From the NCBI RefSeq assembly GCF_963506605.1, contig NC_083276.1, positions 115,010,001 to 115,074,000 on the forward strand: 64,000 nucleotides of DNA, written 5' to 3'. Shown in pieces: positions 7,346 to 10,409 of the stretch. The stretch is from Zootoca vivipara. Its lineage: Eukaryota. Every line of letters starts with the position of its first letter. The stretch's first letter is position 1. A model generated the notes under the pieces. That model was not told the origin of the DNA. It did not search any database and saw only the letters and a list, made by a program, of their open reading frames with translations. The position numbers and the translations under genes were made by a program.

Positions 7346-7966
7346 TATCCTTTGCTGCCTCTGACGAACTTCTACAGCTGCAAAGAGGGTTGAGCTGAGT
7401 GAAAGTCCCACTGAAGCATCTTTTGCCCTTTGTAGGACCTGATTTCACGTCAGGTAGTTGTCATTCCCCTGATTTAAATTCTACAATCTGATTTCATCAG
7501 CTATACACATTCACCTCAAAAACGTGTGCTGCCACCCTAATCTTAGCTACTAAGAAGTAAACTCAATGGGTTTCAATTCTTAGGATGGTGACCCACGACA
7601 GGAATTATATGGGAATAGGTTCAATTGAAGCAATTGGGTTAGCCTCTGATTGAAAGTGCATGGCTGATTAGGCAGGATTCAGTAGCCAGAAGAAGGACAC
7701 AGGTAACTTTTCCTCACTGGAAAATATTAGGCAGGTTTGGGGCTTCACAGAGCTCTTTCTCATTCCAAGAACTTTTGAAAAGAAGACAGCATAAGAGACA
7801 TAAGAACATAATGCAAGCCTGTTGGATCAGGTCAATTGGCCCCTCTAGTCCAGCATCCTGTTCTCAAGGTGGCCAGCCAGATGCATGTGGAAAGCCAGCA
7901 AACAGGATTAGAGCATGAGAACACTTTGCCCACCTGCAATTCCAAGCAACTGATATTCAGAAGAAC

Positions 7967-8258
7967 CCATATACAAAAGCCCTGTACAGGATAGGGCAGG
8001 CATAGGCAAACTCCGGCCCTCCAGATGTTTAGGACTACAATTTCCATCATCCCTAGCTAACAGGATCAGTGATAAGGGATGATGGGAATTGTAGTCCCAA
8101 ACATCTGGAGGGCCGGAGTTTGCCTATGCCTGGTATAGGGAAGCTTTTTAAGGTTTAATGCTTTACTATGTTTTTATATATGCTGGAAACCACCCAGAGT
8201 GGATGGGGCAAACCAGTCAGATGGGTGGGGTACAAATAATAAATTAGGATGATGATGA
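7967..8258 (+). mobile_element. LINE (L2-like) 3' tail, itself interrupted by the hAT MITE
   Basis: ...CACCCAGAGTGGATGGGGCAAACCAGTCAGATGGGTGGGGTACAAATAATAAATT. A related reverse copy lies at 26320-26465. Family assignment is from memory. Confidence 0.5.
7997..8132. mobile_element. Non-autonomous hAT-type MITE
   Basis: Near-perfect palindrome CAGGCATAGGCAAACTCCGGCCCTCCAGATGTTT...AAACATCTGGAGGGCCGGAGTTTGCCTATGCCTG. 8-bp flanks GGATAGGG / GTATAGGG match 7/8, consistent with a hAT TSD. Confidence 0.8.
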
Positions 8259-8644
8259 TGCCTCTGACAGTGAAGGCAGTGACCAGTAACCGTTGATAGC
8301 CTTCTCCTTCATGAATTTGTCTAATCCTCTTTTAACTTCATAACTTTAAAATGTAGTGTGTTTGACCAACAAGAATTTGTTTTGATCACCCAGTCACATG
8401 GCAAGGAACCTTGCATTTCTTCAGGATACTGTAGAATCATGTCTTGATTGTGTGGCCATTCATGTTGATCAAGTCCACTTTCTGAGGACAAATGAACTGC
8501 ATTGCTCAATTAGACTAAGGCGCTCTGTTTCAAACAGTGACCAGGCTATGAAAACTCATAACCAAGGGATTAAAAATTTGGCATGTCTCATAGGCACCTT
8601 GTCCAACACCTGGTACTCGGAAGTATGCTGTCTGAACATGGAGA

Positions 8645-8855
8645 CAGGTAGGTAGCCGTGTTGGTCTGGGTCGAAGTAAAAATAAAAAAATTCCTTCAGT
8701 AGCACCTTAAAGACCAACTAAGTTTTTATTTTGGTATGAGCTTTCGTGTGCATGCACACTTCTTCAGATACCTTCAGGTGCATGCACACGAAAGCTCATA
8801 CCAAAATAAAAACTTAGTTGGTCTTTAAGGTGCTACTGAAGGAATTTTTTTATTT
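8645..8855. mobile_element. Penelope-like retroelement terminal remnant (inverted arrangement) with target-site duplication
   Basis: Perfect 78-bp inverted arms at 8680-8757 and 8778-8855. Flanking direct repeat TGAACATGGAGA at 8633-8644 and 8855-8866. Contains a hammerhead motif typical of Penelope termini. Confidence 0.75.
8733..8772 (-). ncRNA. Minimal type-I hammerhead ribozyme motif
   Basis: Minus-strand RNA GGUAU-CUGAAGA-A-GUGUGCAUGCACAC-GAAA-GC-UC-AUACC: stem I GGUAU/AUACC, CUGANGA and GAAA cores, palindromic stem II, UC cleavage site. Confidence 0.8.
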
Positions 8856-9040
8856 GAACATGGAGAGTTTCACATAGCTAGGAAAATAGCTGAGCAATGC
8901 CTACCCAACTAAATGAAGAGAGAAAGCCAACTTAATGTGAGATGTGACATTTTAAAGATCCAGGGTCTGCAGTCCTATGCACCCTGAAGTAAGCCCCATT
9001 GAACTCAGTGTAGCTTACTTCTGAATAGACATAGGAATGC

Positions 9041-9199
9041 AGGAAGCTGCTTTATATTGAGTCATTCCAGTGATCCACCTAGCTCAGTATTGGTTACACT
9101 GTCTGGAAGTGACAGGGGACATTCCTAGCCCTTCTTGGAGATGCCAAGGATCTTCTGCATGCAAAACAGATGTTCTGCCACTGAGCCATAACCTTCCCC
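9041..9199 (-). mobile_element. tRNA-derived SINE (squamate type), degenerate
   Basis: Minus strand begins GGGGAAGGTTATGGCTCAGTGGCAGAACATCTGTTTTGCATGCAGAAG (A-box TGGCTCAGTGG) and ends ATAAAGCAGCTTCCT. Confidence 0.6.
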
Positions 9200-10409
9200 T
9201 GTGTATAGTATTGTGTTGTATAAGTTTGTGTTATGAAGGCAGATGCTCTGACTCAGGAAAGAAGAATATGGCACCTGGATGGAGACCACAAGTGTGAAGA
9301 GGAGGGCAGTGCATATCTATTGCACATGCCAATGGGAGATGGGGAGACAGAGAAAGGGGGGGAGAGATGGTTGTGTGGCACAGAAGGTCAATCTAGGCCA
9401 AGTACTTGTGTCATGACTGTGGAAGGTGAACCTTGAAAGAGTCCAGTGAATGAGGTTGCGAGCTATGGGGGTAGGGAAGGCAGACAGAAAGAAATAAAAA
9501 GCTAGACATGCAATTTGCTTTTATCACCTACAATTGGGAAGACCACAAACCAATGGACTGGATGCTTGCAGCCCTGTTAGAAGTAAGAGACTTTTGAGAG
9601 GAATGGCTACCATTTTAGGGGCCATCAGAGATCAAAGGGAAAGCAAAGGAAGCAGGAGAAGAACAACATCAAAGATCAGACAGATGATGGTCCCCTGGAG
9701 TAACTAGCTGTGACCACTTGTTTGCTATGGTACAAAAGGCTGTCTATACAGCCCCATAAACAGGGACTGCACTTGAGGGTGAGGAGGCTGGCTGATGGTA
9801 TTTTAAATGGCACTGGTCTGTGGGAGACCCGGGGAGTGTAGTGCAATGATTATGGGCCATTTCAACTGTGGTTTTTAATGGGTAGCTGTAATATGTCTTT
9901 CTTCTGGTCTAAAGACGTCTGGCTGACTGGCTGCACCCACAGGTATGTGCATAAGACTGAAAAGAAGGGATGGAATATAAGCACTACTTATGGGGCAGTC
10001 CTGTGCACCCTTGAATTCATTGGGATTTACTTTCAAGTCAAAATAGATAGGATCAGGCTGTGAAGTGCATGGAGGCCTAGCAGATGAACAAATATGTAGC
10101 TCTCCATTGACCTCAATAGCTTGCCTTGGCAAATCTGCTCTTAAAATCTCAACTCTGACTGAGCCTATCATAGTTACTCAAAAGTAACTTTCATTGGGAT
10201 CTACTCTCAATGCCGTGTATGTAGGATTGTAGCCTTCCAGTTCAGTTTTGTAAACGCAGTGAGATTTAGGCTGCAATCCTATTCCCATTTACTTGAGAGT
10301 AAGACCTTCTGAACTGACTATTACTCGCTTCTGGATAAACATGTGTAAGATTGCCCTGTTAATAATACAACTTCCTTGAGTGGAGTGCAGCTGGCTTCCA
10401 GTTTCAAAT

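Follow-up and report, generated by a model that had tools for sequence, protein, structure and literature searches.

A short Penelope-like insertion with a hammerhead motif, predicted to be inactive, in the HoxD8-HoxD4 interval

Minimal type-I hammerhead ribozymes are described from the pLTRs of metazoan Penelope-like elements (PLEs), where a full core is combined with a stem I of 4-5 bp, an unpaired base between positions 9 and 10.1, a G10.1-C11.1 pair and a palindromic 15.2/16.2 helix without a loop (PMC4209133). They are known in reptiles and mostly occur as single copies of truncated elements (PMC4209133). Cleavage by a single minimal hammerhead is reported to be undetectable, while dimers cleave little in vitro (Cervera 2014, PMC4209133). 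PAc of the green anole is a lizard PLE of the Poseidon clade which likewise carries a hammerhead; according to its description, internal reverse transcription (RT) starts define the tail, both target strands are extended and uncleaved RNA is the main template (PMC11167929). The PAc hammerhead cleaves only with the element protein (Frangieh 2024, PMC11167929), is dispensable for insertion and, in the same account, no RNA-seq reads end at its cut (PMC11167929).

Insertions of endonuclease-bearing (EN+) PLEs are characterized by head-to-head inversion, a tail on one arm and a target-site duplication (10.1101/2021.04.23.441226; PMC3846280), the tail itself being a described PLE feature (10.1101/2021.04.23.441226). 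Their pLTRs contain a TATA-like box and a TCACT Inr-like sequence, a pair known from rotifer pLTRs (PMC3846280), and a Zn-finger-like or Cys-rich linker between RT and endonuclease (EN) is a feature of Neptune and Nematis (10.1101/2021.04.23.441226). The inversions have been attributed to self-priming on an antisense template (Arkhipova et al., PMC3846280). In squamates, Penelope repeats are already known among the interspersed repeats of lizard Hox clusters; the cited passages differ from the present case in describing neither hammerheads nor single polymorphic insertions (PMC9498476, PMC6791295). The gene mir-10b has been placed between HoxD4 and HoxD8 (PMC9498476).

The window considered here is a stretch of 64,000 nucleotides. 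The minus strand carries all the homeoboxes, five of them inside the window and two to the left of it. From the homeodomain sequences, we take them to be D12, D11, D10, D9, D8, D4, and D3. On the same strand, the HoxD8 homeobox lies at ~23.7 kb, miR-10 at about -2.1 kb and HoxD4 between about -3.8 and -4.6 kb. A hammerhead motif in Hox-sense orientation follows the HoxD8 homeobox after ~15 kb and precedes miR-10 by ~10.7 kb; the homeobox and miR-10 positions thus bear out an earlier reading, made from the sequence only, which had placed it in Hox sense between HoxD8 and HoxD4. The D8-D4 interval is rich in repeats. Another high-copy hairpin insert, MITE-like and consisting of 58-bp arms (97% complementary) around a 20-nt spacer, occupies 7997-8132, and contig depth and loose ends reveal more high-copy repeat fragments near the insert at 8130-8340 and 8980-9195. 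Elsewhere in the window, an imperfect 85-bp palindrome with 79% self-match is present at 48834-48918.

The hammerhead is part of an insert of 210 bp (8645-8854) with a 12-bp direct repeat on both sides, which represents a target-site duplication (Table 1). The insert consists of the first ~128 nt of a Penelope-like terminal repeat placed head-to-head with a 78-nt inverted arm. Read on the minus strand, the inverted arm (8854-8778) is followed by a 6-nt junction and the hammerhead, after which come 53 nt of pLTR and, last, the 35-nt tail. The 128-nt sense arm is up to 99% identical to dispersed copies. This build, with its inverted and 5'-truncated arm, its tail at one end and its target-site duplication, is that of EN+ PLE insertions, with the difference that the HoxD copy is a non-coding stub: tblastn with the family protein found no PLE coding sequence in 104 kb, i.e., the window and 40 kb beyond its left end.

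Table 1. Coordinates of the insertion and its flanking duplications within the window.
Feature	Position	Strand	Remarks
Target-site duplication, left, 12 bp, TGAACATGGAGA	8633..8644	+	Empty alleles skip 222 = 210 + 12 bases
PLE tail, on one arm only	8645..8679	-	Inverted arm ends at query position 36; tail 26-mer occurs 4,238 times in the genome
pLTR 3' of hammerhead	8680..8732	-	95-99% identity to best dispersed copies
Minimal type-I hammerhead motif	8733..8772	-	Predicted cut 8738/8737; G8772 is not the family's genomic base
Inversion junction	8772..8777	.	CTGAAG on (-), a re-copied core piece, includes the extra G; alike in copies L014, L016, L017, L140
Inverted arm	8778..8854	+	100% complementary to 8680-8757; stem II, GAAA and cut site present; no CUGANGA, no tail
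Target-site duplication, right	8855..8866	+	Matches left copy; empty alleles

On the minus strand, 8772-8733 reads GGUAU CUGAAGA A GUGUGCAUGCACAC GAAA GC UC AUACC and contains the core elements CUGANGA, GAAA, and UH in type-I order. Every core position is present, as the sequence-only reading had claimed; likewise, C17 corresponds to base 8738, the base at which the cut had been predicted (8738/8737), helix III is the loopless AGCU palindrome recognized before as vestigial, and the inverted arm indeed has no CUGANGA. Folded alone, the motif is predicted to form a stem I and a stem II of 5 bp each, the latter with a CAUG loop, at -10.1 kcal/mol (z -1.75). The proposed 5-bp stem I holds for this copy only, as stem I of the PLE family comprises 4 bp (GUAU/AUAC). 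The fifth pair involves G8772 of the junction, a position occupied by T in full-length copies, and is accidental, whichever origin G8772 has. With a stem I of 4-5 bp, an additional base ahead of stem II and the G10.1-C11.1 pair, the family shows no structural difference from the described metazoan PLE hammerheads (PMC4209133). The assignment to a Penelope-type minimal hammerhead, a type thought to need a dimer, is confirmed by the AGCU helix without a loop and by the RT and GIY-YIG domains of sister copies described below. All testable features of PLE minimal hammerheads and of truncated EN+ PLE insertions are thus present in the HoxD copy. A stem-bearing descriptor found no other minimal hammerhead in the 104 kb, 8733-8772 being the sole match. 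The Rfam 15 hammerhead models, proposed earlier as a check, yielded no match, either at the gathering score or with an E limit of 10. Matches to Rfam miRNA families at 8700-8850 all score below the gathering score and reflect the long hairpin.

The 38-nt ribozyme core has 13,219 exact matches genome-wide without strand bias (6,547 on the plus and 6,672 on the minus strand), a count which takes in close subfamilies with different tails; the reversed 38-mer has none. The family is thereby unusually uniform, like the case of D. virilis (PMC4209133). The density is one per 109 kb, equivalent to 0.59 expected per 64 kb and P = 0.44 for at least one, which puts the presence of one hammerhead copy in a window of this size, as well as its position and orientation, at chance level. 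Longer sister copies (L008, L010, and L035) contain a 600-aa frame with the domains RVT_1 (E 1e-12) and GIY-YIG (E 5e-05), and the motif comes after its 3' UTR. Their RT-EN linker contains a Zn-finger-like CNKPRCQLC ahead of GIY-YIG and is, by its sequence, of the Neptune/Nematis kind, while PAc belongs to the Poseidon clade and has an ORF starting inside stem II (PMC11167929). In the HoxD-copy family, the ATG contained in stem II opens a frame of 11 codons only, and the likely start of the element ORF lies just past the tail, where five copies (L015, L056, L061, L067, and L118) lead to an ATG in good context. Immediately before the tail, the sequence has a T-rich tract and CAG like those of 3' splice sites; the candidate intron reaching from the ribozyme 5' edge to this CAG has a poor donor. 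Related subfamilies (L023, L087, and L122) have the ribozyme in common, with another upstream region and a clearer TATA box.

Copies were further sampled by the tail alone, which has 4,238 exact matches. From the first 100 listed, 80 were taken, the rest being the last 16 and four more units of a single tandem array. The inverted arm is present in 34 of the 80 sampled copies and a short head-to-head hairpin with ribozyme sequence in 22; for 21 of these 22, a duplication of 11-17 bp was detected, and they span 166-255 bp. Two head-to-tail arrays were also observed, one with five units at 598-bp intervals, of which at least four have an exact ribozyme (L056, C1:2777324-2779741), and one with three tail matches 263 bp apart (C1:22262882-22263433). 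Such arrays resemble retrozymes and, in contrast to the HoxD copy, would allow dimers in cis.

A search among sequencing runs listed no RNA run with this sequence, a result without bearing on expression. Over 7900-9500, the window was compared with contigs from four public runs. A contig of sample X5 (organism A) joins 8630 to 8853 with 202 and 210 letters on either side, and one of X12 (organism B, a related organism) joins 8632 to 8855 with 418 and 323 letters on either side. The 222 bases missing from both correspond to the insert and a single duplication copy, and so these contigs represent the pre-insertion site. In X8 and X4 (organism A), contigs from the unique flank reach 23-24 letters into the insert, which is below the bar of 31 letters and consistent with a filled allele. 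The empty site was therefore seen in one of three samples of organism A, the label of the best-matching sample, and in the single sample of organism B. The insertion thus looks polymorphic within the species, in the sense of the same label, and absent from a relative.

Taken together, these observations very probably reflect a recent, dead-end 210-bp insertion of an endonuclease-bearing PLE, in which the hammerhead end lies head-to-head with an inverted partial copy, and whose ribozyme, by prediction, is not active at this site and probably plays no part in Hox regulation. Its boundaries, the 12-bp duplication, the copy number, the RT and GIY-YIG domains in sister copies and the empty allele elsewhere are direct observations. 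If a Hox-sense RNA were transcribed across the site, it would contain the inverted arm ahead of the ribozyme, and this arm would base-pair with stem II, GAAA and the cut site during their synthesis to form a duplex of ~78 bp. In agreement, folding predictions assign -147 kcal/mol (z = -20) to 261 nt including the hairpin, whereas a fold constrained to the hammerhead lies 39.2 kcal/mol higher, with stem pair probabilities of 0.0; removal of the inverted arm raises these to 0.48-0.57. All of these energies are equilibrium predictions. The earlier proposal that the antisense arm precedes the ribozyme in Hox-sense transcription is correct, and sequestration by this arm, raised there as a possibility, is also what folding predicts. 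Both tested features of an exapted host ribozyme are lacking, as the insertion is neither fixed nor conserved at the orthologous site (X5 and X12 are empty) and, by prediction, does not fold as a hammerhead in its transcript context.

A passive effect without catalysis is conceivable in carriers, in which the ~78-bp hairpin in Hox-sense read-through RNA could be edited, diced or silenced via family small RNAs and thereby slightly alter HoxD4/miR-10b output. A polymorphic insertion can still affect carriers of the filled allele. The near-perfect, long and stable hairpin lies upstream of miR-10 on the same strand, and the TE load of anole Hox clusters is reported to correlate with altered HoxD13 expression (PMC6791295). 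However, many copies across the genome share the build (22 of the 80 sampled), and the allele is not fixed, which makes such an effect improbable.

Considerably less probable still is the earlier model of active self-cleavage in long Hox transcripts, either with the antisense arm as its switch or with element RNA and protein supplied in trans to complete the site. The core is intact, stems I and II are predicted to form with a probability of about 0.5 once the arm is removed, and the anole PLE hammerhead does cleave when the element protein is present (PMC11167929). Against this stand the penalty of 39 kcal/mol imposed by an arm that is transcribed first, the inactivity of monomers and weakness of dimers in vitro (PMC4209133), the chance-level position and orientation of the motif and the absence of the insertion at this site in other genomes (X5, X12). 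Moreover, no second ribozyme copy was found within eight mismatches in the 104 kb, and so no cis dimer is available. The notion of an on/off switch is not supported, as a predicted gap of this size amounts to a lock; given that the hairpin build recurs in the sampled copies, the supposed antisense switch is a by-product of insertion, and it is missing in X5 and X12. Nor is that of a Hox-relevant cleavage site, in view of the identical, strand-unbiased copies genome-wide and the empty site in these two samples. The fallback offered by the sequence-only reading, an inert TE relic, fits best.

A monomer of a non-LTR retrozyme, excised by its ribozyme and reinserted through circular RNA, is the least credible origin: retrozymes derive from PLE pLTRs (10.64898/2026.07.22.740005) and the family forms tandem arrays elsewhere (five units on C1), but the HoxD copy is single and inverted rather than composed of head-to-tail units bounded by cut sites, no sampled copy starts at the cut (+34) and only two of 80 start within +28..+40, so that the head-to-head build and the ends largely refute a retrozyme origin for the HoxD copy.

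The ends of the sampled copies are informative about how such stubs arise. With the G of GUAU numbered 0 and the cut +34, 5' ends fall at -11..+21, the ribozyme 5' edge, in 35 of 80 copies and between -260 and -12 in 14, while 16 extend off the fetched edge. Inverted arms terminate in the same zone. A ribozyme-cut origin of the stubs was rejected, given that none of the 80 starts at +34. A smaller cluster at -7 (4/80; L057, L089, L103, and L109) coincides with the start of an Inr-like TTTCACT and may be an alternative start. Full copies contain a TATA-like word and TTCACT just upstream of the ribozyme.

Genome-wide, 9,614 matches (a number obtained by subtraction) have T, the genomic base, immediately before position 0; 2,390 have G, 758 have A and 457 have C. 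At an internal control two bases further in, G occurs 244 and A 321 times, giving a G:A ratio of 0.76 compared with 3.2 at position 0. Among 30 inspected G copies, 29 do not run into the element 3' UTR; the G follows a complete duplication copy in three and is possibly part of the duplication in four. CA precedes the G in nine of the 30, as expected of a fold-back piece, and fold-back pieces ending CTTCAG account for part of the G excess. The origin of G8772 in the HoxD copy is ambiguous, since this base may also have come from the re-copied CTGAAG as its last letter. A G-bearing subfamily as the source was mostly rejected, since 29 of the 30 have unrelated or junction sequence upstream, while L122 looks like such a subfamily.

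In full-length L1 insertions, an extra G marks cap copying (PMC11702581); a literature search, mostly at the level of titles, found no statement on cap copying in PLEs. The evidence tips slightly towards the stub being a strong-stop-like run-off copy of the capped 5' end of uncleaved Penelope RNA, with a transcript starting at the first base of hammerhead stem I, RT primed internally by the two target ends ~128 and ~92 nt further downstream, the cap copied as an extra G and the two cDNAs joined head-to-head. Stalling of RT at the two stems might also produce the cluster of 5' ends; it leaves the extra G unexplained. Clustered 5' ends and an extra G would also fit a capped sense template better than the antisense self-priming suggested for PLE inversions (PMC3846280).

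For a run-off copy, the element's GIY-YIG domain would cut the target with a 12-nt stagger and RT would begin internally ~128 nt into the element RNA, at the tail, read through the uncleaved hammerhead and run off at or near the capped 5' end. The TATA-like/Inr sequence upstream of the ribozyme would be left uncopied. As for the second arm, the other target end could have primed its synthesis at a second start site (~+92), or stem II, being palindromic, could have allowed snap-back. Extension of both target strands on a mainly uncleaved template, as described for PAc (PMC11167929), is thereby proposed for the HoxD-copy family.

For Hox biology, the insertion is of little consequence, a further piece of transposon in a Hox cluster of lizard type, usable at most as a presence/absence marker for effects of the insert on HoxD4/miR-10b. 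For the PLE family, the cluster of 5' ends and the extra G bear on the open question of how inverted ends form and what purpose the hammerhead serves, and they provide a precise, testable prediction of the transcription start site. If the run-off origin is true, thousands of stubs would map this start site and show that the ribozyme leaves the template uncut, and a capped sense template would be indicated for Penelope's inverted ends.
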